Shown here piece by piece: positions 25,193 through 58,301 of a DNA stretch of 64,000 nucleotides; the first letter of the stretch is position 1, and each line of letters begins with the position of its first letter. Source of the stretch: an uncultured Candidatus Peribacteria bacterium (lineage in GTDB: Bacteria > Patescibacteriota > Gracilibacteria > Peribacterales > Peribacteraceae). The stretch covers positions 179-64,178 of the forward strand of contig CAZDKL010000004.1 in NCBI GenBank assembly GCA_964506185.1. Reading direction: 5' to 3'. The position numbers and the translations under genes were made by a program. Below the pieces are notes generated by a model, which saw nothing but the letters and a program-made list of their open reading frames with translations, did not search any database and was not told the DNA's origin.

Positions 25193-26296
25193 TTGACACT
25201 CTTGGTTATTCCAGTAAAGATGGTTGCCATTTTTATGAATTGCCAGGAATCAGATTCGGCCAGCCCGATTCGTAACAGAGCATATTTGGAGTTCTCAGGA
25301 GAGGTTGAAATTCTTACAGATAATAAGATACTTTTTCAAACTCCAAATAGTGGAAATAATCTCCAGGAATTGACCTCATTTGGAAATAGTGAATTTGAAT
25401 TCTTGAAACCACACATTCGTAGGGAAGATAGCGAAAAAGCTTCGAGATTATTTCAAATAGCCCAAGAACAAAGAACGGAATTGAATGCCTTACTGACAGA
25501 AACAGATGAAATGTGGATATTTTTAAACTCAAATGGTGGCGAACTTCTTGCCGAATCAAACACTGCTCCGATTGCAGTAAAAATGCAGATGGAAGAAAAA
25601 CCTTTGCACATCTGCACAAATTTTGCAGGCAGCACAGCCGCAGAAGTTATTCTAAGAAACAGAAGAGCTTTGTTGCATTGTCTGCCAGAATCAATTCTGA
25701 TATGGCATTGCGGCTCTGTAATAACAGAGCGTTGTGATCCAGAAGAATTAGAGAAAGTTTTAAATATGCAAAGCCTTAATAATTTGATGAGCTTTCTTTT
25801 TGCTCGCTTAAAACGTAATGAGGATATTACCAGTTTAGCACAGGCAATCATCGATCTTGGGCTCCTAGTAGGAGTATCCACCATGGAAGATTTTAAAATG
25901 TTTTTAAAAGAATATGCATCTATTAACTTTGATGCAGTAGACTCAATACTGGCATGCAATATCGATTTAAATGTAGATGATGACTATAGAATTAGAGGAA
26001 GTACGTTGCATGAAATCCACAACCTAACTGAGATGTATGACTCTACAGAATCTATGGCGCAAATGTTTGAGGGATACACAGGCAATAAAGTTACCATCGG
26101 TGATATGAGTACTCCTTGGAGCAGATTTTTCTCATTTATGAGAGCAACTGAATTAGCCAGAGAAAGAGGAGTATCTGATGTTTTATTTGTTGAAGCAGAA
26201 GAGGGAGAGATTCGTTGTGGTACACAAGAAGGATTGAGTGATGATGAAGCTAAAATATGCAAAGCCATAAAACATGAAGTATTTTTAGTTTCATAA
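25193..26296 (+). CDS. Hypothetical protein
   Basis: 367-aa ORF. No motif was recognised. Confidence 0.55.
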   Translation: MTLLVIPVKMVAIFMNCQESDSASPIRNRAYLEFSGEVEILTDNKILFQTPNSGNNLQELTSFGNSEFEFLKPHIRREDSEKASRLFQIAQEQRTELNALLTETDEMWIFLNSNGGELLAESNTAPIAVKMQMEEKPLHICTNFAGSTAAEVILRNRRALLHCLPESILIWHCGSVITERCDPEELEKVLNMQSLNNLMSFLFARLKRNEDITSLAQAIIDLGLLVGVSTMEDFKMFLKEYASINFDAVDSILACNIDLNVDDDYRIRGSTLHEIHNLTEMYDSTESMAQMFEGYTGNKVTIGDMSTPWSRFFSFMRATELARERGVSDVLFVEAEEGEIRCGTQEGLSDDEAKICKAIKHEVFLVS

Positions 26297-26492
26297 CGAA
26301 TTAATCCCACGACTAACACGAATAAGACAATCCGCGAAGCGGAAACTTGTTTTCGCTGGAGCGGCTCTTTTGAGGGAGGGGGTACTGGGGGAACCGTAGG
26401 TTCCCTCAGAATTCTGGCGGTGTTGAGGAGACAATCTTAGAACTTTTAAATGTAAATGTATTATCTGGTAGCCTATTTACTATATGAGGTTA

Positions 26493-26516
26493 TTGATCAA
26501 TAAACTGATGTATAAT
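26493..26516 (+). promoter_or_regulatory. Candidate sigma70-type promoter for the GHKL/STAS operon
   Basis: A perfect TATAAT (26511-26516) lies ~17-23 nt upstream of the TTG/ATG starts. The -35 candidates (TTGATC 26493, TTATTG 26490) have non-optimal 12/15-nt spacers. Confidence 0.3.
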
Positions 26517-26532
26517 CATTACATTATTCCTG

Positions 26533-27420
26533 TTGCTCATGACAATTGCGACTCAGATTGTTGTTAAATCAAGTTATAGCACCCTATCCCGATTTAAAGA
26601 ATTAGTAAGAAACATTTCATTTTTAGAATCTCTTGAGGATGGGGCAGAATTTGGAGTTAATGTTGAATATGCGACTCCATTACCTTTGTTGCCACTAGTA
26701 CCAATAATTAATAGAAAAAAATTAAAATGCACTGATGGCTTAAGTTCATATCTTAAAACTATTAGTTTTCCCGAAGGGAAAGAAGGGATAGAAAATATAT
26801 GTAAGGGGACATATATACCTGTATACCATTTATCTCTGGAGAATCTGTGTACGCCCGATGAACAAAGCAAAAAATTAGATTTGCTACATGAAGGTTACTT
26901 AACACTACTTCGCAACAACATTATTGAAGATGATAAATTTGCAAAATTTGTGACCAAGAGTAGCTTTGGAGTGCTACTGGGAGAACTAATTGCAAACATC
27001 GATGAGCATTCTTTGTCTAACAATGTATATATCTATTCTCAATACTGGAAGCAGAATGATACTTGCGAGATATGTCTTATGGACGATGGTCAAGGATTGC
27101 TTGGTTCATTGCAAGCTGCAGGTAGAGATGTAGTTAACTCTGAAGATGCAATTCAAAAAATAATTGAACAAGGGTTATCTGCGAAAGACGAATTTGGGGA
27201 TTCAAAAAGAGGGACAGGACTGAGAATGACCAGAACTGCTATTACAAGCAAGGTAGTCAAGGGAGAGTTTTTAATAGCATCTGGCAATGCAGCCTATCTT
27301 GAAACTCAAACTAGCTCAGGAATACCAATAGATTTGTCAATGGCATCAATACATGGCACAGTAATTATGTTAAAGTTTCAGAGACCACGTGCTACAATTA
27401 ATATCTATGACTATGTATAG
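26533..27420 (+). CDS. GHKL-superfamily (histidine-kinase-like) ATPase, SpoIIAB-like
   Basis: N-box LLGELIANIDEHS, G1 box CLMDDGQGL and G2 box KRGTGLRMT. The N-terminal ~140 aa are unassigned. Confidence 0.7.
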   Translation: MLMTIATQIVVKSSYSTLSRFKELVRNISFLESLEDGAEFGVNVEYATPLPLLPLVPIINRKKLKCTDGLSSYLKTISFPEGKEGIENICKGTYIPVYHLSLENLCTPDEQSKKLDLLHEGYLTLLRNNIIEDDKFAKFVTKSSFGVLLGELIANIDEHSLSNNVYIYSQYWKQNDTCEICLMDDGQGLLGSLQAAGRDVVNSEDAIQKIIEQGLSAKDEFGDSKRGTGLRMTRTAITSKVVKGEFLIASGNAAYLETQTSSGIPIDLSMASIHGTVIMLKFQRPRATINIYDYV

Positions 27421-27730
27421 AATCACACTGCCACTATCGGATGTATTTGATTCTTCAAGTCTTGTTACTAGAAGTGCTGCGAGCATCTTGATCAAAAAAA
27501 TAGAAGAGTTAAATGTTAAAGAAGTAACTTTGGATTTTAGTGAAATTAATCATACATCTAGATCATTTTTTGATGAGCTTGTTAGTAAAACTAAATGTCT
27601 GAAGAATCAGAAAATATTGTTTAAGAATCTCAGTCGTGATTTAGAGAGCTTGTATCATTTTGTAGACAATTATCAGTGCAATTCATCTAGGTTTAAAAAG
27701 ATAGATAAATCAAAAAAAGTAGTTATTTAA
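27407..27730 (+). CDS. STAS-like small protein (resembles DUF4325)
   Basis: ITLPLSDVFDSSSLVTRSAASILIKKIEELNVKEVTLDFSEINHTSRSFFDELV follows the STAS-like DUF4325 pattern (recalled from memory). Its start overlaps the stop codon of the ATPase gene. Confidence 0.6.
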   Translation: MTMYRITLPLSDVFDSSSLVTRSAASILIKKIEELNVKEVTLDFSEINHTSRSFFDELVSKTKCLKNQKILFKNLSRDLESLYHFVDNYQCNSSRFKKIDKSKKVVI

Positions 27731-27740
27731 TTTCTTAATC

Positions 27741-27932
27741 ATGGGTTGGCTGTTTACAGTATTGGGATATATAGCTCTTGGAGCGTTTATTGATATGTTT
27801 ATAACCAGTGATACTTACACGAAAGGGACAGGTGAAGTTCATTTTTTGAAAAAAGATGAGAGAAAGAATGTACGAATGTGGTTTTGGATAATATGGATAG
27901 GTTTTCCTATTGGGTTTGCACTACTGGTGTGA
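27741..27932 (+). CDS. Small two-helix membrane protein
   Basis: Two hydrophobic helices (WLFTVLGYIALGAFIDMFI; MWFWIIWIGFPIGFALLV). Confidence 0.45.
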   Translation: MGWLFTVLGYIALGAFIDMFITSDTYTKGTGEVHFLKKDERKNVRMWFWIIWIGFPIGFALLV

Positions 27933-28109
27933 ATGTTCCTCAGCTTTTGATTTAGCCACAATGGCAAATAGTGTAAGCATGGTCTCCCCATACTCCCTGG
28001 CCATCTCTGGAGTTAATTCCTCGCCCATTTCCTGTTTCCACAGTCCTTGGAATGCCTTGATGTCATCGTCAGTTAAAGTCATAAATGCATTGAGAAGAAG
28101 ACTATACAT
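27921..28109 (-). CDS. Small hypothetical helical protein
   Basis: 62-aa ORF with protein-like composition (TDDDIKAFQGLWKQEMGEELTPEMAREYGE). Confidence 0.4.
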   Translation of the reverse strand: MYSLLLNAFMTLTDDDIKAFQGLWKQEMGEELTPEMAREYGETMLTLFAIVAKSKAEEHSHQ

Positions 28110-28126
28110 TAATACAATATCTCCCT

Positions 28127-29014
28127 ATGAAAAAAGCAATTACAGCCTTTTTATCTTTATTAGTACTTACTGCCTGTACAGCCACAGAAGCCGATCTACA
28201 GGGCTTAAAAGAGCGAATTGAGGCTCTTGAGAAGGAGAATACAGAGCTTAAGCAAACGGAAACTGGTTCTGTTGAGGAGGAAGATAAAGAGCCTGAGCCA
28301 AAGGCTGAAGACAAGAAAGTCGAGGTAAGACAACCTGAGCCAGAGCCTGCACCTGCGCCACAACCAAAACCTAAACCAGTTCCAAAGCCTGAACCCCAAC
28401 CAGCAGTTAAGAAGTGTGAGGAATCAGATTGGGATTGCACGATATGGACTCCGTGTACAAATGGAAAGGAAATTAGAGTATGCAAATTAATTGGTAGTTG
28501 CACTGAAGGATTTCAACCCGAAGTTATAGAAAAAACTTGTGAAGATGGAACAACTAAAAAAACAGGTGAATTAAAAGCGCCTCCATGCACAACAGAAGAT
28601 TGGAGGTGTACTGAATATTCATCTTGTTACAATGGGAAGCAAACTAGAACTTGTGATTTGATTTCTCAGTGTGTTGGTGGCGCAAATGTGAAGCCAAATA
28701 CTATTAGTCTATGTAAAGCACCACCATCTCCAAAGCCTGTTTATAGAAGTCCAAGACAACAAATGAGTGATAATATAGAAAAGTGGAAAACGTTCCGTGC
28801 AGATATGATGAAACAAGTAGAGTTTTACCTGAAGCAAGATGAGCCTGCGTATGGTTTGCGACAAATAGATAAGATCGACGTCGAGTTTGTTGCTTACTTC
28901 AATGAATACATAAAGATTTATAATGGAGATAAGGAAGGCGATCCAGAAAGGCTGGAAAAATCCATTAATAATCTAATTAAAGAGTTTAATGCTTTGCCAA
29001 AGTTTTATTATTAA
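28127..29014 (+). CDS. Lipoprotein with a coiled-coil leader, a Pro/Glu/Lys linker and two Cys-rich repeats
   Basis: Lipobox LLVLTAC, then LQGLKERIEALEKENTELK. Repeats DWDCTIWTPCTNGKEIRVCKLIGSC and DWRCTEYSSCYNGKQTRTCDLISQC. Confidence 0.8.
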   Translation: MKKAITAFLSLLVLTACTATEADLQGLKERIEALEKENTELKQTETGSVEEEDKEPEPKAEDKKVEVRQPEPEPAPAPQPKPKPVPKPEPQPAVKKCEESDWDCTIWTPCTNGKEIRVCKLIGSCTEGFQPEVIEKTCEDGTTKKTGELKAPPCTTEDWRCTEYSSCYNGKQTRTCDLISQCVGGANVKPNTISLCKAPPSPKPVYRSPRQQMSDNIEKWKTFRADMMKQVEFYLKQDEPAYGLRQIDKIDVEFVAYFNEYIKIYNGDKEGDPERLEKSINNLIKEFNALPKFYY

Positions 29015-29023
29015 GAAGGGTAC

Positions 29024-29191
29024 CTATTTTTTCCCCCAAATTGAAAATCCTAACATGCCAGTAGCTACAAAAAGAGGAATTATTATTATCGCATCTTCCA
29101 TCAATGCTTCAGATGGATGTGTTAGATTTAAATCATGAAGCAAGGCAAGTATTAATAATCCCAAAGACAGAAAGAAGAAAAATATCCGCAT
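29024..29191 (-). CDS. Possible 55-aa membrane peptide (below the ORF-track cutoff)
   Basis: My own translation: MRIFFFFLSLGLLILALLHDLNLTHPSEALMEDAIIIIPLFVATGMLGFSIWGKK. Confidence 0.3.
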   Translation of the reverse strand: MRIFFFFLSLGLLILALLHDLNLTHPSEALMEDAIIIIPLFVATGMLGFSIWGKK

Positions 29192-29237
29192 ACAAGATAA
29201 TGCTACATATGCTCTAAACCTTAATCAATCTGACTTA

Positions 29238-29570
29238 TTAAATCGTAGATCCAATTTTTAATATATCCCAGGTATTTCCTTTAGTATCTACCCCCTGACA
29301 GATTGGCTCATCAAAAATTGTATCTGTGCAATACATATCATCTAACCTGACTGGACTGCCATTTGTTAAAAATACTGTCATGCTCATCCCGTTATTGTTC
29401 CTAACATATAGACTTTGACAATCGCTACTTTCAGAATATGGCCTCTTGCATACCATAAGGTACTCTTTGCCTGTAAAAAATGGATCTTTTTGATAAGTAT
29501 TTCCTCCACAGCTGAATAATAGTAATAATGACAAACCCAATAATGATTTTTTATTACTCATAAACTCCAT
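29238..29570 (-). CDS. Small lipoprotein
   Basis: Signal peptide and lipobox: MSNKKSLLGLSLLLLFSCGG. Confidence 0.6.
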   Translation of the reverse strand: MEFMSNKKSLLGLSLLLLFSCGGNTYQKDPFFTGKEYLMVCKRPYSESSDCQSLYVRNNNGMSMTVFLTNGSPVRLDDMYCTDTIFDEPICQGVDTKGNTWDILKIGSTI

Positions 29571-29597
29571 TATAGGATAGTACGCTATACTTACTAT

Positions 29598-30002
29598 ATG
29601 CAAATAACCAAGAAGAAGTTTATAGCCATATTACCTATTGCACTGCTCGTAACAGCATGCATTCCAACTATTCAAGATACACAGGAAAAATCACAACTCG
29701 ATAACAAGATTAAATGTCATGAATTTGGAATGAAGAATTATTTCGAAGAAGAAAGCAAATACAAGTGGTATCCCGAGCAAGTATTTGCTTACAGTCCAGA
29801 TCTAGATTCATGTTTGTATTACTATCGATTTTTCACAGAAAATAATTCAGGCAGAGGGATAGTGGATATGTTTTCGGATAAATCACTATCTATTTATATG
29901 CCAATTTGTAACAAGAGAAATAAATGTTCTGATACTCTAAAAGCTGAAGATGCAAAGAGCTTTGATGATTTTATGGCTGTGTATAATAAGTATTTTGAAT
30001 AG
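29598..30002 (+). CDS. Small lipoprotein
   Basis: Signal peptide and lipobox: KKKFIAILPIALLVTAC. Confidence 0.6.
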   Translation: MQITKKKFIAILPIALLVTACIPTIQDTQEKSQLDNKIKCHEFGMKNYFEEESKYKWYPEQVFAYSPDLDSCLYYYRFFTENNSGRGIVDMFSDKSLSIYMPICNKRNKCSDTLKAEDAKSFDDFMAVYNKYFE

Positions 30003-30006
30003 GGCG

Positions 30007-30048
30007 CCCATCAAAAGCACCCCCTAGGGTTGTTTATTGGTACCATGA
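30007..30048 (+). repeat. 42-bp direct repeat, copy A
   Basis: cccatcaaaagcaccccctagggttgtttattggtaccatga matches 40 of 42 positions of 32230-32271. Confidence 0.9.
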
Positions 30049-30063
30049 TGGACACATTGGTTT

Positions 30064-31062
30064 TTAGTTGTTTTTAAACAATGACCACAGCCAGCGCCAA
30101 AATCCGCCCTTTGATGAATCAGTATCATTATTAATCTGCGGCTTATCTTCAATACTTTCTACAGGCACCGATTCAATTTTCTCTAGCTCTGCACTACTAC
30201 TTACAATTGGCTGTGCACCAACCATAGGTGCTTCTTCTTGTGGATTGCATACATCGCCCCATAAGCCAGTTCTTTTCTCACGAGCTTCTTTCTCATCACT
30301 ATTGTAATCATCTAGTCTGGGATGTGGATATTTTTTGTAACTGTGTGCATATCCTTCTTTTATCATCTGTTTTCCAATATCTCTACCTAAATAATGAACG
30401 TAACGCAATAGGCGACCATATACATCGCGATTCTCTGCTGGATTTTTCACCAGCGTTACATACTTATCACCAATAAGTTGTTTAAGCTTTGCGCCAGCTT
30501 CTTTACCAAAGCATTCAACTGGCTTGCTAGGATGCACGGTCTCAGGTGAATCGATACCTATGATTCTCACTTTCTCTCTTTTATTATCACAAAAAAATGC
30601 AAAAGTATCTCCATCAATCACCTCGGATACTTGGGTCATGAAGCTGTTCACTTCGCAATCCAAGAGGCAATTATTTCCAATTTCCTTGTAACCATCGTTG
30701 CATAGCCAAACGTCAGTACCGTTGTTAGCTTTATGAGAATTGTCTGGCACTTTTGCACAGGACTGGCCATTCAATGATGGCAAATATCCTACATTACATT
30801 CACACAAACTGGCTGATTTATTATATTTTGCATTTGCGGGGCATCTCGGAGTTGTAGGAACATACTTAGGAGTAGGTGCATACGTAGGCGTTGGGGAACG
30901 ATACCCTCCATGACAATGCCTAGCATTCCATGTCTCACCCCAATAATCACATCTTGTTCTACAGTAATGACATCCATCTGAAGCAGTTCTACCAGGGTGT
31001 GCTTCTACTACGATTGGTAGAATTAATATTGCCAATGCAAGAATTAGTCTATTTATTGTCAT
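30064..31062 (-). CDS. Secreted thermonuclease (SNase-like) with a His/Cys-rich leader and EGF-like Cys modules
   Basis: Signal peptide. SNase core: VIDGDTFAFFCDNKREKVRIIGIDSPET...ECFGKEAGAKLKQLIGDKYVTL...DVYGRLLRYVHYLGRDIGKQMIKEGYAHSY...EAREKRTGLWG. Confidence 0.88.
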   Translation of the reverse strand: MTINRLILALAILILPIVVEAHPGRTASDGCHYCRTRCDYWGETWNARHCHGGYRSPTPTYAPTPKYVPTTPRCPANAKYNKSASLCECNVGYLPSLNGQSCAKVPDNSHKANNGTDVWLCNDGYKEIGNNCLLDCEVNSFMTQVSEVIDGDTFAFFCDNKREKVRIIGIDSPETVHPSKPVECFGKEAGAKLKQLIGDKYVTLVKNPAENRDVYGRLLRYVHYLGRDIGKQMIKEGYAHSYKKYPHPRLDDYNSDEKEAREKRTGLWGDVCNPQEEAPMVGAQPIVSSSAELEKIESVPVESIEDKPQINNDTDSSKGGFWRWLWSLFKNN

Positions 31063-32174
31063 AATTTAGAATAATCTTCTGTGAACTTATCTACCTTTTC
31101 CTGTAATGCAGGATCTCTCTCAGCTTTTGATAAAGCATCCATCTTCCAGGATACTTTACCTTGCTTCCTCAGATCTTCCATCATTTTAGTGGCACTATTT
31201 TGTGCTTCGGCAATCTGTGATCTACTCATTTTGCTTCGAGCTTCATCCATTTTTTCCTTTGCATCAGGTACCCCTTGAGATCTAGCAATACTCAACCAAA
31301 CATATGCAAGCACTTGATTCTTTGGCACACCAATTCCAAGTGCATACATATCACCAAGATGATATTGAGCAAGAGGATCACCCTGTTGTGCTGATTTACT
31401 TAACCATTTCGCTGATTCATTCCAATCTTCTGTGACACCAATTCCATTAAAATAATCCATTCCTACAGAGAATTGCGCATCCGAATTTCCATTTTCAGCC
31501 GCTTCCAGATACATCTCAAAAGCCTTAACATGATCTTGGGGCACTCCATAACCAAGGCTGTGCATTACTGCTAACTGATACAAAGCCTCAACATAACCCA
31601 ACTCAGTTGCTCTTTCGTATAATTGATTTGCTTTCGTGTAATCTTTTTTGACCCCCAAGCCACTCGTATATAGCTTACCTAATAAATATTGAGCAGATGG
31701 AAAATCTTGATCTGCAGATTTTTTGTACCAATAAGCTGCCTTTTTGTAATTCTGCGTTACTCCATTCCCACCCTGATGCATATAACCAAGCAAATACTGC
31801 CCAAATGGGCATTTATCTTTAGCTGATTTACGAGCCAATTTGATCGCTTTTTTATAATCTACATCAACACTTTGGCCTAAATAGTACATTGACGAAAGCA
31901 TTGATGTTGCAGCAGGGTCACCCAAATCATGAGCTTTCTTAAACCACTCAAGTGACTTGTCGAAGTTTTGTTCAATTCCCTTTCCTTCATAATATCGTCT
32001 GCCAATTTCAGCTACCACAGTCAAATCGCCTTCTTTTTCCTTATTAAATAATTCCTCCATCGTAAATGCATGCATCTCTTGATAATTTATATTATCAAAC
32101 ACACTACTATCACTATTAATAGTACAACTTGCACATAAGATTGTTATCAAGGCAATGACGGCGAGTCTTTGCAT
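31059..32174 (-). CDS. Sel1-repeat (SLR/TPR-like) lipoprotein
   Basis: Lipobox ITILCASC, then seven or more Sel1 repeats (e.g. AQYLLGKLYTSGLGVKKDYTKANQLYERATELGYVEA). It overlaps the nuclease gene by 4 nt. Confidence 0.88.
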   Translation of the reverse strand: MQRLAVIALITILCASCTINSDSSVFDNINYQEMHAFTMEELFNKEKEGDLTVVAEIGRRYYEGKGIEQNFDKSLEWFKKAHDLGDPAATSMLSSMYYLGQSVDVDYKKAIKLARKSAKDKCPFGQYLLGYMHQGGNGVTQNYKKAAYWYKKSADQDFPSAQYLLGKLYTSGLGVKKDYTKANQLYERATELGYVEALYQLAVMHSLGYGVPQDHVKAFEMYLEAAENGNSDAQFSVGMDYFNGIGVTEDWNESAKWLSKSAQQGDPLAQYHLGDMYALGIGVPKNQVLAYVWLSIARSQGVPDAKEKMDEARSKMSRSQIAEAQNSATKMMEDLRKQGKVSWKMDALSKAERDPALQEKVDKFTEDYSKL

Positions 32175-32229
32175 GTGACAAAGGTAGTACTATTTGAACT
32201 AGGCCACAAGCTTATAGCTAATGGGGGTA

Positions 32230-32271
32230 CCCATCAAAAGCACCCCCTAGGGTTCTATATTGGTACCATGA
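32230..32271 (+). repeat. 42-bp direct repeat, copy B
   Basis: cccatcaaaagcaccccctagggttctatattggtaccatga. Confidence 0.9.
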
Positions 32272-32313
32272 CGAACAAATCCTAAATACCATTTTATGTT
32301 ATAATATGCATAT

Positions 32314-32667
32314 ATGAGTGATAAGAAGAAGATAGGTAGGCCAACCAAATACAACGATGAAATTCTGAATAAAGCAAAATCATATGTTTCACACTGCCAA
32401 GATAAAGAAAAAATTCCCTATATCGAAGAATTAGCCCTTATTTTAGACATAAACGACGATACAATCGTTGAATGGACAAAGAAGCACAAAGAGTTTTCCG
32501 CCACTATAGATCAACTCAAAACGCTTCAGAAGCTACGAATTAAGGATGGTGCTTTAACCAAGCAATTACATCCTTCTACTTCGATGTTTCTACTTAGAGC
32601 CAATCATGGAGTTAGTGATAGACGTTATGATAAGCCTGAGAATGTAGAGTTTGTAATTACACTGTAG
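32314..32667 (+). CDS. Terminase-small-subunit-like HTH protein
   Basis: GRPTKYNDEILNKAKSYV...IPYIEELALILDINDDTIVEWTKKHKEFSATI...STSMFLLRANHG follows the phage TerS / gp3-like pattern. Confidence 0.6.
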   Translation: MSDKKKIGRPTKYNDEILNKAKSYVSHCQDKEKIPYIEELALILDINDDTIVEWTKKHKEFSATIDQLKTLQKLRIKDGALTKQLHPSTSMFLLRANHGVSDRRYDKPENVEFVITL

Positions 32668-32673
32668 TAGCAT

Positions 32674-32970
32674 ATGTATGTGTTCAGGAACTGTGTTTTT
32701 ATTGGCTCTCTGTTGCTGATTGGATGTACTTCAACTTCTTACGATATTGATTTAAAATGCAAAAATGGTCGTACAGATGCTGGAAACCCATATTTCCGAG
32801 TTGATGCTTTTTCAAGAGATAGAAAAACTGAGACGTTGACTTGTTACTGGGGAGAATATTTCAAAGTAAAATGCGCAAGTAATACATCAAGAAGAATTGA
32901 CGATGAATACTTCTGCACAACACACGATGGCAAGAGCGTGCGGGTACAACTAGAGAAAGAAGACACCTGA
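32674..32970 (+). CDS. Small lipoprotein
   Basis: Lipobox: IGSLLLIGCTS. Confidence 0.5.
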   Translation: MYVFRNCVFIGSLLLIGCTSTSYDIDLKCKNGRTDAGNPYFRVDAFSRDRKTETLTCYWGEYFKVKCASNTSRRIDDEYFCTTHDGKSVRVQLEKEDT

Positions 32971-32984
32971 TAAAATAGGTAACT

Positions 32985-33773
32985 CTAAGTATTCTCTAAG
33001 TTTTTCGGTGCGTTATAGTTTTCCATCTGCTTCAGTTGCTCGCGTTTCTGAATCTCCTGAGCCTTCTTAAACCAATTGCCAAGCCCCTTGGTAGTTAGAG
33101 AATCGATTTTCCTCTCTAATAGCCACGATGCATGATGCTGAAGCTCGACCTTCATTTTTATTTTGCCTAGATATCGCTCAACAATGGGATCAAGGCTTTC
33201 AACTGTTACCACATTGGTAATTCCATGCCTATTACACATCTCTTCTATCGAATCAAATAATGCTTTTGTTTCAAATCGCACGTTCGTATTCTTGTAATTC
33301 TTTTCATTATTCTCATTATTTTCATTCTTGTTAATGGATGGACGTTGTTGGTTCTCTTTTAGTCTATCTTTGGAATCTTCATTGGTATGTTCCTTGGTTC
33401 GTTCGTAGTTAGTTAGATTCTGATATTTATCGTAGTTAATAACAGTAATTAATATTCCTCTTGGTTTTTTCGCAGTGGTTATTCGATTGGTATCTCGTAA
33501 GTATTTCAGTACACGTTTCGCTGTGCTGTCGCTCGCATTCTTTCTGCAACAGCCAATGTAGTAACGTAACTGATCAAGCAATTCTCCACTATGACAAAAA
33601 TATTGCCCACGTTCTACCGTGAAACCACGGTAACGTTTTCTTTCATGGTTAGCCTTGCCGATAATATATATAAAAATTTTTAAGTAAGTTGGAGGCATCT
33701 CCCATATATCGCTTGTAAATAAGCTACGTGAGAGTTGGAAAGCGCCTTGGCTGTGATTATCAGTCAGTGGCAT
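32985..33773 (-). CDS. Replication/DnaD-like winged-helix protein of a mobile element
   Basis: FQLSRSLFTSDIWEMPPTYLKIFIYIIGKANHERKRYRGFTVERGQYFCHSGELLDQL...RVLKYLRDTNRITTAKKPRGILITVINYDKYQ is a pattern common in phage/plasmid replication-organiser proteins (family not verified). Confidence 0.5.
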   Translation of the reverse strand: MPLTDNHSQGAFQLSRSLFTSDIWEMPPTYLKIFIYIIGKANHERKRYRGFTVERGQYFCHSGELLDQLRYYIGCCRKNASDSTAKRVLKYLRDTNRITTAKKPRGILITVINYDKYQNLTNYERTKEHTNEDSKDRLKENQQRPSINKNENNENNEKNYKNTNVRFETKALFDSIEEMCNRHGITNVVTVESLDPIVERYLGKIKMKVELQHHASWLLERKIDSLTTKGLGNWFKKAQEIQKREQLKQMENYNAPKNLENT

Positions 33774-33865
33774 CGCTTTGCGTGTTAATTGTCTCCTCTA
33801 TACCTTCAGTGCGATCTCTTATCCCTTTCAGGATCAGAAAGTATTCGGCGTAGACCATTGCTCGC

Positions 33866-34075
33866 TCATCTAGTGTTAACACTTTCATTATCGTATAGAT
33901 CGTCCATAGGGATATGTAAAAGATGCCCTGCGTGGAATAAAATTGATTTCGGTGGTTTTACTTCGCCATTCTCGTAGCGCCATAAAGTTGATCTACTAAT
34001 GCCCAATTCATTGGCAAGCCATGTAAGTGTTACACCATTCTTGCGTCGGTAATGTCGTATAGCTGTCATATGCAC
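33866..34075 (-). CDS. XRE-family HTH regulator
   Basis: RRKNGVTLTWLANELGISRSTLWRYENGEVKPP. Confidence 0.8.
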   Translation of the reverse strand: MHMTAIRHYRRKNGVTLTWLANELGISRSTLWRYENGEVKPPKSILFHAGHLLHIPMDDLYDNESVNTR

Positions 34076-34167
34076 TGTGGTAAATATCTGTTGCCAGAAT
34101 ATCCGAAATAGGTTGGGGGTGCCATGTAAACGTTGCGCACTGCCATATAGAGTGCTACAGTGCCGAT

Positions 34168-35022
34168 ATGCTCAGTAAAAGTGTGTTTCAGATCATTGCA
34201 GAGAAGCGTAAAGAACGGCATATTTCACTCAGCTTACTTGAAGAGAAAACAGGTAAAGATCGGGCTTCGATAATGAGATGGCAAAGGGGTGAATGCATGG
34301 TGCCAAAAAAAATGGATAGCATATTGGCAGAACTTTTTTATGATAATGTTCAGGATAGGAAAAAATTTATAGAGCATTGTAAATACTCTAGAGACAAAGG
34401 AAGAAAAGAAATGAACAGAAGGCGTAACAGACGCAAAAAGATGACAGAAGCAAGCAAATTATTTAAGGCTGATTTAAATTTGGGTTGGACATCATCAAGT
34501 GATGATAATGAATACAAATATTCTTATGCATCAGTAGTTGTTAGAAATAAAAAAACGGGGCAATTTATTTTGAATGTGTGTCACAGAACATTTCGCTTTT
34601 ACGAAGATGGATATTCAGAAGATGGAAAATTACCAAAACCTTTGTACCACAAGAGTGCCCTAGAACCATATATGAGATACTGTTCAAAAAATAAAATTGG
34701 TAAATTTGCTTTGTTTGATCTTGCAAAACGAGAGGTTGAAAAATCTGATATGTTTAAAGTTTCTAGTCCAGACTGGTTCCCTATTCCAGGAGGCAAGCCT
34801 ATCATTGTTGACTCATTAGAAATCGAGAAAATACAAAAGTTTTTGGAACGAGCGCATGATTATACTAGCGTTAAAAAGTTAAAATCGGATGCAAAAGACC
34901 TTAATACAAGATTAGATCACATAAGGTCTAGAGCGAGTGAGATGCCGAAGTGTAAAGATAAACTTTTAAAAAGTATTGATAATGCATGTATCTTAATTCA
35001 AGAAAAACTATCTGATGCCTAA
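34168..35022 (+). CDS. HTH-domain protein, divergent from the XRE gene (possible switch partner)
   Basis: N-terminus IIAEKRKERHISLSLLEEKTGKDRASIMRWQRGE. The C-terminal 200 aa are unassigned. Confidence 0.6.
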   Translation: MLSKSVFQIIAEKRKERHISLSLLEEKTGKDRASIMRWQRGECMVPKKMDSILAELFYDNVQDRKKFIEHCKYSRDKGRKEMNRRRNRRKKMTEASKLFKADLNLGWTSSSDDNEYKYSYASVVVRNKKTGQFILNVCHRTFRFYEDGYSEDGKLPKPLYHKSALEPYMRYCSKNKIGKFALFDLAKREVEKSDMFKVSSPDWFPIPGGKPIIVDSLEIEKIQKFLERAHDYTSVKKLKSDAKDLNTRLDHIRSRASEMPKCKDKLLKSIDNACILIQEKLSDA

Positions 35023-36511
35023 ATACGTTGCTTACCTCAGGCGTTCAACTAAAGATGAAAAGCATCAACAGTACTCCATAAGTGCTCAAGATAAGCTATG
35101 TAAAAAATATGCTAAGCAACACTCACTTACTATTGGGAAAATAGTTACAGAAGAACACAGTGCAAGAATGGCTGGTAAACGACCTAAATTTTTGGCAATG
35201 CTTGAGGATCTAGAACAAGGCAAATATGAAGGTGTTATTGTGCACAATGTTGATCGCTTACTTCGCTCCATTGGAGATTACGCTCTTATAGATACTCTAA
35301 GAACAAGTGGTACTGAGTTTCATTTTGTTGATGGTTCTTATCCTAATACTCCAGAAGGCAACATGATGCTTGGGATTAATGTTGTCTTTGCCAAATGGTA
35401 TGTAGAAAAGCTTGGCAAGGAAGTTAAGAAAGGATTCAAGGAATCGCTTGAGCAGGGTAGATACCCAGGTGAAGCACCAGTTGGTTATCTCGACAAAGGC
35501 AAGGGTATCAAAACTCCTGATCCTGTTTACGCACCTCTTGTACGCCAAGCATTTGAGCTATACGCCACAGGAGACTATTCATTGGATTCTCTTACAGCAG
35601 AAATGAGAAAGCGTGGATTGCGTACTAAGCGAGGTCAGAAGTATGGCAAACAACTTGTAAAGGGCTCATTGCACAGAATCCTCTCGAACCCTTTCTATTG
35701 CGGAAAAGTGTTAATGAAAGGGGAAGAATACGAAGGCGGACATGAACCAATCATTTCAAAAGACCTTTTTTATCGTGTAGAAAAACTCCTTCACTCAAAG
35801 AATACTTCATTCGTTTCGCGCAAACCATTTGCATACAGAGGCTTACTTCGGTGCTCATGTGGACAGATGCTTTCGCCTTATGAAAAGAAAGGACGTATTT
35901 ACTATGGATGCCATCAAAAGGGGTGTACCCAATCAACAACTAGGGAAGGGGTGATAGACGAAGCAATCAATAATATTTTGGATAAGTTGATGTTTACAGA
36001 TAAGGAACTTGAAGCAACTCGCAAGTCTATGAAGAAACTGGAGGCATTTGTAACCGAAGAGAGAGATACAAACTTGAAATCAATAATAGCCAGAAAAGAG
36101 AAGGTCAATGATCGCCTTGGTAAAGTAAGACAGCTTGTTATTGAAGGCACCTTTGGCAAAGATGAATATGAGGAAGAGAAAGACAAGATCGAAAAAGAGC
36201 TTTCAGATATTGCAGAGGAAGAGGAGCGTATTCAAAAAATTGAAGTAAAACGATTGGATGAAGTTTATGAGTTCTTAGAACTAACCAAAAAGGCATCTTC
36301 GTACTTCAAAAAGGGAAACCTTGAAGAGAAGAGACGTATCGCACAAATGGTATTCTTAGACGTGCAGATAACAGACAAGGAAGTGACTTCTTTTAGCCTG
36401 AATGAAGCTTTTGAGACTTTGAACAGGCGTCATGATCGATGTATCGGTGCGTATGGCGGGGCTGACGAGACTCGAACTCGCGACCTTCCGCGTGACAGGC
36501 GGACGTTCTAA
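35015..36511 (+). CDS. Large serine recombinase (integrase)
   Basis: Resolvase catalytic N-terminus (VAYLRRSTKDEKHQQYSISAQ...GVIVHNVDRLLRS), recombinase domain (GEAPVGY), Cys-rich zinc-ribbon region (LRCSCGQ...YYGCHQKGC) and a coiled-coil tail. The last 58 nt are antisense to tRNA-Asp. Confidence 0.9.
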   Translation: MPKYVAYLRRSTKDEKHQQYSISAQDKLCKKYAKQHSLTIGKIVTEEHSARMAGKRPKFLAMLEDLEQGKYEGVIVHNVDRLLRSIGDYALIDTLRTSGTEFHFVDGSYPNTPEGNMMLGINVVFAKWYVEKLGKEVKKGFKESLEQGRYPGEAPVGYLDKGKGIKTPDPVYAPLVRQAFELYATGDYSLDSLTAEMRKRGLRTKRGQKYGKQLVKGSLHRILSNPFYCGKVLMKGEEYEGGHEPIISKDLFYRVEKLLHSKNTSFVSRKPFAYRGLLRCSCGQMLSPYEKKGRIYYGCHQKGCTQSTTREGVIDEAINNILDKLMFTDKELEATRKSMKKLEAFVTEERDTNLKSIIARKEKVNDRLGKVRQLVIEGTFGKDEYEEEKDKIEKELSDIAEEEERIQKIEVKRLDEVYEFLELTKKASSYFKKGNLEEKRRIAQMVFLDVQITDKEVTSFSLNEAFETLNRRHDRCIGAYGGADETRTRDLPRDRRTF

Positions 36512-36530
36512 CCAACTGAACTACAGCCCC
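36454..36530 (-). tRNA. tRNA-Asp (GTC), CCA encoded
   Basis: The minus strand reads GGGGCTGTAGTTCAGTTGGTTAGAACGTCCGCCTGTCACGCGGAAGGTCGCGAGTTCGAGTCTCGTCAGCCCCGCCA. It folds as a cloverleaf with anticodon loop CTGTCAC. Confidence 0.93.
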
Positions 36531-51593: not shown

Positions 51594-51670
51594 AGGCGCG
51601 TAGCTCAGTTGGCTAGAGCACTGGTCTCCAAAACCAGGGGTCGAAGGTTCAAATCCTTCCGCGCCTGCCA
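51594..51670 (+). tRNA. tRNA-Trp (CCA), CCA end encoded
   Basis: AGGCGCGTAGCTCAGTTGGCTAGAGCACTGGTCTCCAAAACCAGGGGTCGAAGGTTCAAATCCTTCCGCGCCTGCCA folds as a cloverleaf with anticodon loop CTCCAAA. Confidence 0.93.
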
Positions 51671-53311
51671 CTCAATACAGAGATTTGGGTCTAATGGCCG
51701 CTTCTCTAATGTTTTAGAAACCGTATCATTACAATCAGATGATTCTAACCTTGCCTTTTGATTTGCTCCCGCAAGCGGGAACTTTGCGATAGTTGCGAAA
51801 GGTTCTTGATACTCAGCGGTCACTTTGCAGTCTTTTAGCACTAGGTTCGAACAAACAAGTAAAATAACCCCTCTCTTCTCCTCACATGAAGCCATAGCAA
51901 GATTATCCGGTAGGTTAATTAATGCTTCCACAAACGACTGGCAGTCATCAATCCATTGGGTGCCATCTCCATGAATAGCGCCGAGCTTGCTCTGAATTGA
52001 TTCTAAATCCTCGTTCAGCGCACGCTTTTGTGCAAGGTATTCTTCATCTGATAAGAGTTCTCCACTGACATTATTGGGTGATATTTTAAGCTGTAGTAGG
52101 CCATCTAGCTTCTGTTTGCAGGCATTGTACTGAGACTGCAGTTTCCTTCTTACTGACTCAGAAGATTTAGCTTCCGACTTATGGAGCTCACGGACTTTAT
52201 CACAGGCTGGCTTAATAAATGCTTCTGGAATGGACAAGTCTGTAAGTATACAAAGCAGTTGCTCCTGTAATTGTTCCTCGCGTATCCACTTGCGCTGATC
52301 ACATGAACCTTTTTTGTAAGTGCAGTGGTAGTACACGTGCCCTTTCTGCCACTCTGCAGTAATTGCACAACCACATTCACCGCATCGCATAAGACCACTG
52401 TAAGAAAACTGATGTCTGCGATGTCTTCCCTTAGATTTCCTTGCAAGTGCATGCTGTACCCGGTCAAACAGCTCTCTGGAAATTAAAGGGTCATGTTGAA
52501 TGTTTTCATTGTATATTTTTCCCTGGTAACGTATAGCTCCATAAAAGTAGGGGTTGGAGAGCAAATTTGTAAGAACACACTTGCTTAATTTCTTTTTACC
52601 ATTGCGAGTTTCTAGGCCGATCCCCTGAGCATAATTTTGGAGCCCGGCTAACGTATACACCCCCTTAGATGCCTCTTCGAATAACATTCTCAACAACTTC
52701 CCATCTATTGGGTCAATCTCCTCCCGTTTCAATGGCCTTTCCAGCTGTTCCAGTATTTGCTGCTTTTGTGGTGAGTATTGGGCTGGAGTAATGCGACCTG
52801 CCCTATCAATATTTAGAAAGCCCAATGGGACAGTCCCTGGAAGCTCGCCTTTAAGCAATTTGGATTTAATATCTCGCTTTACGAATTGGCTGTTGTCATC
52901 ACTACTTTTCTTTGCCATAGCGAAGTGTATCTGCATCATGAACTTATCGTCAGAGTGGCCTGTAAATTCACTCTCAGGTGTAATGATTTTCTTTATGACA
53001 TCATCATCCATCATGTAAATGATGCGCCCACCATCAAAGCTGTTCCTTGCCAAGCGGGTAAGGTGGTAGGTAAGTATGCAATCGACCTCGCCGGCTTCTA
53101 TCCTATTTAGCATCTTGTTAAATAATGGACGTCCTTTCTTGTACGCGCTTTGGCTCTCAACGTAGATGTCGACTATTTCGATATTATGATTCTCGGCATA
53201 TTCCAATAAGGTGCGCTTTTGGGCGTCATTACTTAGCACCTGTCGATCCTCACGTTCTTGGCTACGTCTGCAGTATGCAATTAGGCGGGTTGGGGATTCT
53301 TGATAGGACAT
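51605..53311 (-). CDS. Large serine recombinase (integrase)
   Basis: LIAYCRRSQEREDRQVLSNDAQ...CILTYHLTRLARN (resolvase domain), recombinase domain (GTVPLGF) and a Cys cluster (MRCGECGC...YYHCTYKKGSC). The last 66 nt are antisense to tRNA-Trp. Confidence 0.9.
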   Translation of the reverse strand: MSYQESPTRLIAYCRRSQEREDRQVLSNDAQKRTLLEYAENHNIEIVDIYVESQSAYKKGRPLFNKMLNRIEAGEVDCILTYHLTRLARNSFDGGRIIYMMDDDVIKKIITPESEFTGHSDDKFMMQIHFAMAKKSSDDNSQFVKRDIKSKLLKGELPGTVPLGFLNIDRAGRITPAQYSPQKQQILEQLERPLKREEIDPIDGKLLRMLFEEASKGVYTLAGLQNYAQGIGLETRNGKKKLSKCVLTNLLSNPYFYGAIRYQGKIYNENIQHDPLISRELFDRVQHALARKSKGRHRRHQFSYSGLMRCGECGCAITAEWQKGHVYYHCTYKKGSCDQRKWIREEQLQEQLLCILTDLSIPEAFIKPACDKVRELHKSEAKSSESVRRKLQSQYNACKQKLDGLLQLKISPNNVSGELLSDEEYLAQKRALNEDLESIQSKLGAIHGDGTQWIDDCQSFVEALINLPDNLAMASCEEKRGVILLVCSNLVLKDCKVTAEYQEPFATIAKFPLAGANQKARLESSDCNDTVSKTLEKRPLDPNLCIEWQARKDLNLRPLVLETSALAN

Positions 53312-53336
53312 AATTGGAGTTGGAAAGAAACAAAAA

Positions 53337-53435
53337 CCCAGAGGGCGGCCCTGGCTATCACATCAGCTATTCGCTGTGTGCAGGGCCGCCCTCTGGGCGG
53401 TATACAAAACCAAACGAATAGCAATGATGTGATAG
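53337..53435. repeat. Two interleaved inverted repeats between the primase-helicase and integrase genes
   Basis: IR1 (17 bp, perfect): cccagagggcggccctg (53337-53353) / cagggccgccctctggg (53381-53397). IR2: gctatcacatcagctattcg (53354-53373) / cgaatagcaatgatgtgatagc (53414-53435). Confidence 0.85.
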
Positions 53436-53443
53436 CAGGCTCA

Positions 53444-55342
53444 TTATAGCAGATCATCTTCGTTGTCTCTAATAATCGTTTTAAACTGCTCCTTGGTCGA
53501 ATATACCCACGGAGAATTCTCAATATCTTGGTCTTCCTTCTCGCGGTTAAGAATCCCAAGGTGGTAAAGCTCTTCCAAGTATCTTTTAATTGTCTTAGTA
53601 CTCATGGTCGTGATTCCTTCAGCTACATCTCTTCCTGTCAATTGGTCGGCAAAATTAAACTGGCGCAATACCTCAGCACGCTGAACAGGCATAGACGATA
53701 GTGCCACTTTTCGTATAGTGTCCACTTCAACTTGTGTTATACCTGTTTTAGCCCGTACAGTTGCAAGCGATCGGCAAAGAGTTCTTATCTGATGCAAAGC
53801 CCGAAAGGGTTCTTCTATCTGAACTCCAATAACATCCCTATAAACCACCTCCTTCCCCTCGTCGTCGACAAACTTGTTAGTAGTGGAGTCTACAATCCCA
53901 CGAGTACGAGCGATGAATTGGGCTATGTTGTTTAGCTGTTTTTTAATCTCCGGTTCTTCTGGTTCAAGCTGTAGGCCATGCTTTTTGATATGCTCGCAAA
54001 TCGAAATAACAAGGCTTATTGATGCCTTTGCAGCCTCAATACTTATTTGTTTGAAGTTGTCGTTCCAAGCATTGCTTAAGCATTCTTCCCGCTCCTCACT
54101 TGTAAGCTCAGGTATTCGTAGAGTAAGAAACCTTGGACCAACCATATTCATGTAGTTTTGGCGCATCTTAAGGCCTTGAGGCGTCACGCAGCCCACATGG
54201 GCAAATGTAGCCTTGTAACGGATTGTGCCCCGCGATCCACTGTGCTTGGAAAACTCTCCGTCATAAATCGACACCAGATCTGACAGCAGTTTCTTTACAG
54301 TTTCTTCGCTTCTGCCAAAGAAAGAGGTGTAATCCTTAACAATAAAACAACAACCATCCAGTTGCGGTAATAGATCTTGAGGATTCTCACTTTCCTTCAT
54401 TCCGGATATAAACGGAGCGCTGGTCATCACATCTATTGCAATAGTATCCGGTGCATAACGAAGCAAGGATACAAGCTCAGTCTTGTTGGAGCTCGGTGGT
54501 CCGACTAAAAGCAGCCAGAGCGGGTTCTTTTTCACAAGTTGCTTGCTTATATATGTTGCCAATGTAATCTCAACAACGTAATCATGAACGAACCCAAGTT
54601 GTCGGGTAAGTTCAAGCACATCTGCAAGTGAAGCGGGAGGCAAATTAGAAAGGTCCCTGAATTCCATAGGAGTTTGTGTCCCGCTTGCTTTATTAAGTAG
54701 GTCCTCTGGTATGTTGCCCACCAACTTTAATAGTCGGTCGGGCAATTCATCCTGCTCTTGCCTACATTGACACGCAAAATCAGCCATATCTCCGCCCTTT
54801 TTAAATTCTATTGGCCAATGAATCATCCGTAGTTTAATGTCAGGTCTTTTATCCAAAACTAGTTTTACTGCCGCCTCCATTGCTTTCCATCCCGCTTGGT
54901 CATTGTCGAATGACAACACAAGCTCGGCATTATTCGGGACATGCTCAAGGCATGGTTCAATGGATGTGGATGCACCAGTAGTTACTGTTTGAGCAGACAT
55001 TCCGTTCTGGATAAGAATTAAACAATCAAGCTCGCCTTCGGTTTGCCACACTCGATCAGGATTCTCTTCTTTCCAATAACTTGGTCCAAAAACACCGTTC
55101 CGTTTTCCGGGATTAAAAAGCCATTTCTTCTTTGGATCGCCAATTTTCTCTGATAAAGCAACTCGCAGTTTCCAAGCCGTAGTTTTGCCGTTAGCCTTCG
55201 CATTGGGGATGCAGATGTGCCCCTTGCTATCCAAAATAGTATAGGCAATTCCTATAAGGTCTATTACCTCGTCAGTAAGGCACTTTTTGGTTTTAAGTAA
55301 TTCTCGTTCTTTATCGGGCAATGATTCTATTTTTAGGTTCAT
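53444..55342 (-). CDS. Toprim-domain primase fused to a P-loop NTPase (primase-helicase) with a C-terminal wHTH-like region
   Basis: Toprim: VWQTEGELDCLIL...LVLSFDNDQAGWKAMEAA. Walker A-like LLLVGPPSSNKTE and Walker B-like CCFIVKDYT. Confidence 0.75.
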   Translation of the reverse strand: MNLKIESLPDKERELLKTKKCLTDEVIDLIGIAYTILDSKGHICIPNAKANGKTTAWKLRVALSEKIGDPKKKWLFNPGKRNGVFGPSYWKEENPDRVWQTEGELDCLILIQNGMSAQTVTTGASTSIEPCLEHVPNNAELVLSFDNDQAGWKAMEAAVKLVLDKRPDIKLRMIHWPIEFKKGGDMADFACQCRQEQDELPDRLLKLVGNIPEDLLNKASGTQTPMEFRDLSNLPPASLADVLELTRQLGFVHDYVVEITLATYISKQLVKKNPLWLLLVGPPSSNKTELVSLLRYAPDTIAIDVMTSAPFISGMKESENPQDLLPQLDGCCFIVKDYTSFFGRSEETVKKLLSDLVSIYDGEFSKHSGSRGTIRYKATFAHVGCVTPQGLKMRQNYMNMVGPRFLTLRIPELTSEEREECLSNAWNDNFKQISIEAAKASISLVISICEHIKKHGLQLEPEEPEIKKQLNNIAQFIARTRGIVDSTTNKFVDDEGKEVVYRDVIGVQIEEPFRALHQIRTLCRSLATVRAKTGITQVEVDTIRKVALSSMPVQRAEVLRQFNFADQLTGRDVAEGITTMSTKTIKRYLEELYHLGILNREKEDQDIENSPWVYSTKEQFKTIIRDNEDDLL

Positions 55343-55343
55343 T

Positions 55344-55643: not shown

Positions 55644-55827
55644 GACACTTACAAGATGGAAACTCAGAGTCGACGTGTAGGTGCGCCCCCCACTTATCAG
55701 CTAATTGCATGATTGCATCATAGAAATCCTGATAGCTTTGATCTGATTGTTTTGAGCCGTTGTTTGTAATAGAATTTGACATGTTAAAATGATTAGAAAA
55801 TAAGCTCCTCCGCTTGACCCATTGCAT
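55624..55827 (-). CDS. Small hypothetical protein
   Basis: ORF in the same minus-strand operon. No family was recognised. Confidence 0.4.
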   Translation of the reverse strand: MQWVKRRSLFSNHFNMSNSITNNGSKQSDQSYQDFYDAIMQLADKWGAHLHVDSEFPSCKCHGKERD

Positions 55828-55829
55828 AC

Positions 55830-57763: not shown

Positions 57764-57797
57764 TTATCTGTGTCTAAGGCGAGGTGGCTAAGGTATA

Positions 57798-58250: not shown

Positions 58251-58301
58251 GAGTAAATGATATTTATCTTTACTCGGGTAAGGCAAGGAAGTGTAGTGTG
58301 G

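Follow-up and report, generated by a model that had tools for sequence, protein, structure and literature searches.

Is the small mobile element beside the tRNA-Asp gene of a Candidatus Peribacteria bacterium a phage satellite, or an integrative island of another kind? The element lies in a 64,000-nucleotide stretch from an uncultured member of this lineage (contig CAZDKL010000004.1 of assembly GCA_964506185.1; the whole stretch is called the window below), in which a sequence-only reading had recognized the layout of phage-inducible chromosomal islands (PICIs). Bacteria of the candidate phyla radiation (CPR) have tiny genomes and are mostly uncultured, and gene exchange among them is poorly understood. 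The CysS protein encoded in the window is 84-87% identical to CysS of Candidatus Peribacter and Peribacteria metagenome-assembled genomes (MAGs), which places the host within Peregrinibacteria, in the CPR/Patescibacteria. Here we describe the element as, with near certainty, a serine-integrase island that is site-specific for tRNA-Asp, has moved recently and is one of a modular family of such islands in Peribacter-like CPR bacteria. What stands firm is this family, which is well resolved, together with its clade of integrases specific for tRNA-Asp; the satellite reading is the testable part.

A recently moved island at the CCA end of tRNA-Asp

The ends of the island were set by comparison with contigs of the same population that lack it, giving an element of 10,039 bp (26,421-36,459); the region 32230-36530, on which the sequence-only reading was based, is the core module only, and the full island is longer. 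Comparison of the empty-site contig L002 with the window placed the insertion point at the CCA end of tRNA-Asp, at the core TGGCGG. The attachment site attL has its core at 26415-26420, as indicated by this comparison, by the reconstruction of the attachment (att) sites and by an arm motif common to the sibling islands described below, and the core is directly followed by the attP-derived arm (26421-26450, TGTTGAGGAGACAATCTTAGAACT...). The attR core (36454-36459) is the antisense of the tRNA 3' CCGCCA, which comprises discriminator-side bases and CCA. The target, tRNA-Asp(GTC), was called by ARAGORN on the minus strand at 36454-36530, and the empty-site contigs have it too; because the core is the antisense of its terminal CCGCCA, the tRNA stays intact after insertion. 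The reconstructed sites are …CAGAATTC TGGCGG GGCTGACGAGAC… for attB, …CAGAATTC TGGCGG TGTTGAGGAGAC… for attL and …GGTGCGTA TGGCGG GGCTGACGAGAC… for attR, and the predicted attP junction joins …CGATGTATCGGTGCGTATGGCGG to TGTTGAGGAGACAATCTTAGAACTTTTAAATG…. Neither attB nor attP showed convincing inverted-repeat symmetry.

The G+C content of the island is lower than that of the flanking DNA. An open reading frame (ORF) of 367 amino acids (aa) that adjoins the att site (25193-26296; 358-367 aa, no family match) was considered as part of the island and ruled out, since it occurs in the empty-site contigs and is thus a host gene; its own low G+C (0.39) makes the island seem about 1.2 kb too long. 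The M23 peptidase gene to the right of tRNA-Asp is a host gene too. A weak match at 26414-26430, tried as a displaced tRNA fragment, was rejected, as it is the attP-derived arm.

To follow the island through populations, we gathered contigs from related metagenomes via exact flanking host proteins. Seven different empty-site contigs (among L002-L019) carry the M23 peptidase gene, tRNA-Asp, the 358/367-aa gene and a 581-aa gene with nothing between. Their M23 peptidase is 100% identical to that of the window, and they differ from the window precisely at the TGGCGG junctions. The comparison of tRNA-Asp loci, by which mobility was to be checked, thus gave occupied and empty alleles that differ exactly at the att junctions in identical host DNA, and because these otherwise identical host contigs have an empty site, the island must have moved recently. 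The occupied copies were 100% identical across several samples and metagenomes, and one variant copy (99.07%) was in a different strain background. Contig L001 corresponds to window positions 26366-36508, that is, to the island plus exactly 55 nt per side in common with the empty allele; this pattern fits an assembly-graph bubble at k=55, so that both alleles probably coexist in that sample. In the sampled populations, occupied and empty alleles coexist.

An integrase whose C-terminus depends on the state of the island

The integrase (498 aa; 35015-36511, plus strand) matched the Resolvase (PF00239, 2.6e-25), Recombinase (PF07508, 2.2e-16) and Zn_ribbon_recom (PF13408, 4.8e-5; 24.1 bits, just below the 25.3 cut-off) domains as well as phrog_95 'integrase' (5e-83), and its residues 7-12, YLRRST, form the N-terminal motif containing the catalytic serine. 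By its domain matches it is a large serine recombinase and not a tyrosine recombinase as in described PICIs.

The integrase ORF passes attR and stops within antisense tRNA-Asp, its last 17 codons (36460-36510) being tRNA antisense. Because attP lies within the 3' end of the ORF, the C-terminal ~20 residues differ between the integrated form of 498 aa and the excised form, for which the att reconstruction predicts 503 aa. The same read-through geometry was found in five relatives at tRNA-Asp (36454-36511 in the window; about 11431-11491 in L115, L117 and L119), in an unrelated island at tRNA-Tyr (L023, 5874-5966) and in a second island of the window at tRNA-Trp. Across several independent islands, therefore, ~20-30 C-terminal integrase residues depend on the integrated or excised state, and such a state-dependent tail could help to control directionality. 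In L023 (4217-5966), the gene for the serine integrase at tRNA-Tyr consists of two overlapping ORFs (4217-4699 and 4680-5966), and it is split in the same way in L022 and L024; a frameshift, an error in sequencing or decay to a pseudogene may account for this.

A core module of regulators and replication genes without virion genes

All 15 island ORFs were scanned with Pfam and PHROGs. None of the 15 matched capsid, portal, large terminase (TerL), tail or lysis families, and tblastn searches of phage TerL and portal proteins against the window gave no match; apart from the small terminase gene terS, the profile searches for structural or packaging genes that the sequence-only reading had proposed thus yielded none. 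That reading had called the stretch free of virion genes from 25 kb on, which holds for the ORFs of the island, while the starting point does not, as the island begins at 26,421. The inward gene order from tRNA-Asp was recovered as described, from ORFs and family matches: integrase, helix-turn-helix (HTH) protein, divergent XRE regulator, DnaD-like protein, lipoprotein and terS-like gene.

The HTH protein of 284 aa (34168-35022, plus strand) overlaps the start of the integrase. Its N-terminal XRE/SinR-like HTH (residues 4-45) was detected by a profile search against the PDB (1.4e-4), its C-terminal domain has no family assignment, and a homologue search returned the protein itself alone; it is a candidate for a master repressor (Stl/cI-like) or an excision co-factor. 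On the other side of a 92-nt divergent-promoter spacer (34076-34167), which is present as the earlier reading had it, a Cro-like XRE regulator of 67-69 aa (33866-34075, minus strand; HTH_31 4e-10, HTH_3), 36-69% identical to its counterparts in sibling islands, heads a leftward XRE-DnaD operon. A consensus promoter scan gave no site within the spacer, and in a sigma-70 scan shuffled sequence yielded more promoter-like sites than the real sequence did. The operon continues with a DnaD-like replication initiator or helicase loader of 262 aa (32985-33773, minus strand; phrog_2514, 1e-20), 66% identical to its counterpart in L115 and 28% to that in L119. With a long HTH protein co-oriented with the integrase, like Stl/cI, and a short Cro-like protein heading the replication operon, the switch appears to resemble that of the Staphylococcus aureus pathogenicity islands (SaPIs).

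A family of sibling islands at the same tRNA

The relatives of the integrase form a discrete clade at 49-69% identity, beyond which the next matches fall to 36%. We read the contexts of five siblings (L115, L117, L119, L120 and L121), and all are at tRNA-Asp with the same overlap geometry. Four of the five have mapped ends and span 5.5-9.7 kb: L115 (9.7 kb), L121 (7.6 kb) and L119 (5.5 kb), in which the attL 18-mer matches the tRNA perfectly, and L120 (8.8 kb), in which it has four mismatches; attL was not found in L117. The window island, at 10.0 kb, has three mismatches. The island ends consist of a repeat of the last 18 nt of the tRNA, followed by a conserved arm (AATCTTAGAACT, AGTTTTAGAACT, GATCTTCGAACT or AATTCTAGAACT). 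The imperfect element-side 18-mers of the window (26421-26432) and of L120 (2583-2600) suggest an attP shaped on the tRNA-Asp acceptor stem of another host, i.e. a possible record of transfer. L119 has a third copy of the 18-bp att repeat at 5842-5859, 92 bp outside attL, possibly left as a scar when an earlier or a tandem integration took place.

All five siblings have the integrase and, overlapping its start, an HTH protein of ~300 aa (286-334 aa), which is only 14-38% identical between members. A small gene divergent to the HTH protein is likewise present in all five, being XRE-like in four, and encodes in L117 a 43-aa protein with no recorded family. The replication gene adjoining this small gene varies in type by member: it is DnaD-like in L115 and L119, RepB_primase plus PriCT in L120, Zn_ribbon_DnaG in L121 and DUF3631 in L117 (19.0 bits, below the 24-bit cut-off), and replication modules have thus been swapped between siblings. 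A replication gene beside the switch has been kept by every sibling, which makes autonomous replication of the island after excision likely. The cargo of L115 includes a 1369-aa helicase. L117, at the same host locus as the window island (M23 and S11 peptidase neighbours), encodes the Shedu defence protein SduA at 4719-5753, with DUF4062 and DUF2188 genes, so that the backbone also carries anti-phage cargo. With att boundaries, occupied and empty alleles and five sibling islands, the alternative of a minimal integrative element, which the earlier reading had raised beside the satellite, is well borne out.

A phage-type small terminase gene

Alone in its integrase clade, as far as the five siblings examined are concerned, the window island carries a phage-type small terminase (TerS). 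The gene (32314-32667, plus strand) encodes 117 aa, of which residues 8-103 align with positions 1-102 of the 105 of the Pfam profile GP3_package (PF16677; 57.7 bits, cut-off 29.4), and the protein also matched PHROG terminase-small-subunit families (2e-8). Only nine homologues were retrieved. One of them (P0006), 46% identical to the window TerS, has its gene immediately ahead of those for a Terminase_3 TerL and an SU10 portal (L026/L027). In the IMG/VR relatives L031-L033, terS is followed by TerL and then the portal, and in L030 a portal gene is downstream. In addition, 61 GenBank phage records match TerS, including APSE P17 and genes annotated 'terminase small subunit'. Given the GP3_package and PHROG matches and the phage homologues beside TerL, the family assignment is therefore sound. 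No TerL lies beside the window terS, in the island or in the window (Pfam, PHROGs, tblastn).

The two closest homologues with readable context are in other small serine-integrase islands, not in phages. In a Patescibacteria MAG (L022-L025; terS 57% identical), the order is SLH/lipoprotein gene, terS, three genes and a serine integrase gene ending in tRNA-Tyr antisense. In L110/L111 (terS 58% identical), it is terS, two lipoprotein genes, a small ORF and a serine integrase gene, and the lipoproteins are homologous to those of 98 and 134 aa in the window. The integrases of both are only ~26-27% identical to the window integrase. In all three islands, terS is 1-2.5 kb from the large serine recombinase. 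The island copies of TerS are 57-66% identical among themselves and, in a neighbour-joining tree without bootstrap, form one clade apart from the phage copies, a clustering that suggests maintenance of the gene in islands. They are 117-136 aa long, and the copies outside the island clade, including those in confirmed phage context, are 125-191 aa. The conserved core of the window TerS is complete through the C-terminal conserved strand, and the protein ends right after it. Searches of the PDB with the single sequence or a profile gave no match. An alignment scan of GTDB genomes returned nothing and one of the JGI metagenome collection a single 1.2-kb contig, the window's own genome being outside both collections.

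Is the island packaged by phages?

The elements that make up a PICI-like layout, namely an integrase, divergent regulators, a replication gene, terS and accessory genes without virion genes, are all present (ORFs, Pfam, PHROGs), as the sequence-only reading had proposed. Satellite status depends on TerS, the sole phage morphogenesis gene of the island. We regard a PICI-like or tycheposon-like phage satellite (tycheposons are compared below), packaged via its own TerS, as a serious, tentatively held possibility. In favour of it, three islands with distant integrases have kept an intact conserved TerS core, a pattern that matches pac-type PICIs and 'PICI-like' tycheposons, in which PICI-like and cargo-carrying members have a backbone in common (10.1101/2020.12.28.424599). 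In such a cycle, the 284-aa HTH protein, co-transcribed with the integrase, would hold the island silent, and the divergent operon would start with the small XRE protein and also provide the DnaD-like initiator. Once the island is excised, the latter would bring in the host helicase and the circle would replicate. Upon infection by a Peribacter phage, the island TerS would bind a pac site on the island and recruit the phage large terminase, and the island DNA would be packaged in phage capsids and reach new cells, as in pac-type PICIs and PICI-like tycheposons, together with its cargo of lipoproteins, a secreted nuclease, a Sel1 protein and the 295-aa/DUF4325 (STAS-like) pair. The broader proposal, that this is the first CPR phage satellite lineage, a tRNA-Asp serine-integrase island that hijacks Peribacter-phage capsids with its own TerS and whose backbone family alternates between cargo/defence islands and satellites, is rather unlikely by our estimate. 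A full-text literature search on phage satellites in CPR/Patescibacteria bacteria gave none, the only result being a DPANN/haloarchaeal preprint, which agrees with the earlier remark that no characterization of satellites in this lineage was known to that reader.

Several observations weigh against packaging. The analysis, with its IMG/VR scans, turned up neither a helper phage nor an excised form or circle, and no attP junction or encapsidated copy; the island itself is not in IMG/VR, where scans that included the integrase and the DnaD-like protein gave no close relatives. No origin or iterons were identified around the DnaD-like gene. The window TerS is the shortest of its family and is devoid of the C-terminal tail of the phage copies, which may matter for TerL binding, and its gene is not part of the XRE-DnaD operon but convergent towards it. 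The AlphaFold2 model of TerS is all-helical and of moderate confidence (predicted local distance difference test score 70.6), and Foldseek gave no significant PDB match, with 2ao9 and P22 gp3 (3p9a) only at E values of about 1-4. Finally, the five siblings have no terS-family gene by tblastn, for which nine members of the family served as queries (E up to 0.01-0.1). The siblings persist without it, so that terS could be cargo with another role; the backbone is therefore that of a general integrative, replicative island, and terS is an accessory gene of the window member. These points lead to a rival explanation that we also hold to be possible, with comparable reserve: an integrative, replicative cargo/defence island that phages do not package, that moves by excision and uptake of free or vesicle-borne DNA or is merely gained and lost, and whose terS is a captured phage gene. 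TerS might then be an anti-phage decoy, acting either by poisoning the TerS rings of phages or by occupying pac sites, or might have no role. The siblings share the integrase/HTH backbone and replication genes and carry cargo such as Shedu SduA and the 1369-aa helicase; terS is always accompanied by lipoprotein genes, with which it could form a phage-exclusion module; and the lack of an IMG/VR copy and of the TerS tail fits as well. Cargo-carrying tycheposons likewise went undetected in virus fractions (10.1101/2020.12.28.424599). Against this explanation, retention of a complete TerS core by three islands whose integrases are distant points to selection for a role in the biology of the islands. 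Pac-type satellites classically hijack packaging by means of a TerS homologue, and no decoy function is on record for this TerS family.

Two further explanations are much less probable. The sequence-only reading had offered the terS-like HTH protein as an excisionase, that is, as the recombination directionality factor (RDF) of the serine integrase. Such factors are diverse and often small, and the proximity of terS to the recombinase gene in three islands would fit one. Nevertheless, we consider this role very unlikely, since the presence of terS does not follow the integrase clade: the five sibling islands, with integrases 50-69% identical to that of the window, lack it, whereas islands with ~27%-identical integrases carry 57-58%-identical copies. 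Moreover, the phage homologues hold the terS position directly upstream of TerL, and a co-factor would more plausibly be the ~300-aa HTH protein, whose gene overlaps the start of the integrase in every sibling. The island could also be a degraded prophage, in which the integrase, switch, replication genes and terS were left after deletion of the morphogenesis genes; integrase, regulators, replication genes and terS is indeed the left-arm order of many temperate phages. This explanation is, however, the least probable of all, as all ORFs are intact, the copies are 100% identical across samples, and occupied and empty alleles part exactly at the att sites. The four mapped siblings span just 5.5-9.7 kb, and a structural-gene remnant was found in none of the five. 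In addition, terS is convergent with the replication operon, and lipoprotein genes, not TerL, come after it.

Cargo genes, a 56-nt repeat and a second island in the window

The remaining island genes encode lipoproteins, a secreted nuclease-domain protein, a Sel1-repeat protein, two small proteins and the 295-aa/DUF4325 pair. A 295-aa protein (26533-27420, plus strand) matches phrog_3364, of unknown function (3e-23), and has no Pfam, PADLOC or NCBIfam match; its gene is paired and overlaps with that of a STAS-like DUF4325 protein (27389-27730, plus strand; PF14213 3e-6, above the cut-off), and the pair as such has no match in PADLOC or NCBIfam. These genes are followed by one for a hydrophobic, probable membrane protein of 63 aa (27741-27932, plus strand), which has no family match and is a called gene in L001, and by a small ORF of 62 aa, called as 53 aa, again without a family match (27921-28109, minus strand). 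A 295-aa lipoprotein with a lipobox-like N-terminus, a Pro-rich linker and Cys-rich repeats (28127-29014, plus strand) is, in its C-terminal part, 26% identical to the SLH-like protein beside terS in L022/L023. A lipoprotein of 107-121 aa (29238-29603, minus strand) has no family match, and a homologue (29% identity) of the 134-aa lipoprotein (29598-30002, plus strand) adjoins terS in L111. The 98-aa lipoprotein encoded after terS (32674-32970, plus strand) has a homologue (30% identity) beside terS in L110/L111. A cassette of two minus-strand genes encodes a secreted staphylococcal-nuclease-domain protein (30064-31062; PF00565 2e-22, PADLOC candidate 'SNc+LTD' 6e-30) and a Sel1-repeat lipoprotein with seven repeats (31059-32174; PF08238 7e-62). 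PADLOC called no known defence system in the cargo, its sole match being this candidate nuclease, and an NCBIfam search of the island proteins added nothing.

The nuclease-Sel1 cassette is flanked by a 56-nt direct repeat (30002-30057 and 32225-32280, both plus strand), the second copy being directly upstream of terS. The copies are 88% identical, and their exact 25-mer core occurs exactly twice in the window, where none is expected by chance. The repeat holds three short palindromes (GGGCGCCC or GGGTACCC, CCCTAGGG and TGGTACCA), the first of which differs between the copies yet remains palindromic. It folded no better than shuffled sequence, and it was absent from IMG/VR and from all fetched loci. 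In L111, the homologues of the 134-aa lipoprotein, TerS and the 98-aa lipoprotein are encoded by adjacent genes, so that the cassette looks like a nested insertion.

The second island of the window (51594-61367) has a large serine recombinase of 568 aa (51605-53311, minus strand) that ends in the antisense of tRNA-Trp (51594-51670) and is 26% identical to the integrase of the tRNA-Asp island. It also encodes a Toprim-domain protein (53444-55342), an SLH protein (56360-57763) and a restriction-like Mrr_cat_2/ResIII helicase protein (58302-61367); no virion genes were seen within it.

Significance and comparison with known systems

For gene flow in CPR bacteria, the locus presents a mobile element in occupied and empty alleles alike, with boundaries at base-pair resolution, and the sibling islands, which swap replication modules and carry defence or surface-protein cargo, show that it is no isolated example but one of a family. 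The integrase clade could suit engineering, as its target, the CCA end of tRNA-Asp, is simple and conserved and the att sites of five members are defined. If the terS-bearing member is indeed packaged by phages, phage satellites reach into the CPR, and the duality of cargo island and satellite known from tycheposons would have arisen independently on a serine-integrase backbone.

Like PICIs such as the SaPIs, the island is about 10 kb long and inserted site-specifically with defined att sites; it has an integrase at one end, followed by divergent regulators (a long HTH protein co-oriented with the integrase and a short Cro-like one heading the replication operon), a putative replication initiator, a TerS homologue and accessory genes, and no virion or lysis genes. 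In contrast to PICIs, its integrase is a large serine recombinase, whereas those described for PICIs are Tn916-type and SXT-type tyrosine recombinases (10.1101/2020.12.28.424599). Its replication protein is DnaD-like and not a Pri-Rep primase/helicase, and its terS is convergent to the replication operon, downstream of which the terS of PICIs is located. No PICI-type capsid-remodelling or interference genes were recognizable in the island. Furthermore, its host is a CPR bacterium, and the induction of excision, replication and packaging by a helper phage, a feature of PICIs, is hypothetical in its case.

Tycheposons of Prochlorococcus and other marine bacteria are, like the island, tRNA-targeted, site-specific integrative elements with replication genes, and they too are present or absent as islands in streamlined genomes from marine waters. 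One integration/replication backbone serves both cargo-carrying and PICI-like tycheposons, the latter with terS or a capsid gene (10.1101/2020.12.28.424599), and the window island and its five siblings at tRNA-Asp similarly combine varied replication modules and cargo on one backbone. However, tycheposons are defined as one gene-sharing network, and 910 of the 937 elements use tyrosine recombinases, only 27 using large serine recombinases (10.1101/2020.12.28.424599). With an integrase from a different superfamily, the island is unlikely to belong to this network and its tRNA-associated tyrosine-recombinase clade, and, unlike in tycheposons, the crossover is at the CCA end and leaves no partial tRNA copy.

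With the serine-integrase phages and islands (phiC31, Bxb1, A118 and the SCCmec Ccr recombinases), the island shares the Resolvase, Recombinase and zinc-ribbon domains, the N-terminal YLRRST with the catalytic serine, and a short crossover core between att arms that are otherwise dissimilar. Whereas the best-known serine integrases insert into protein-coding genes or intergenic sites, the target of the island is the 3' end of a tRNA gene; it also differs from these systems in that its attP lies within the 3' end of the integrase ORF itself.

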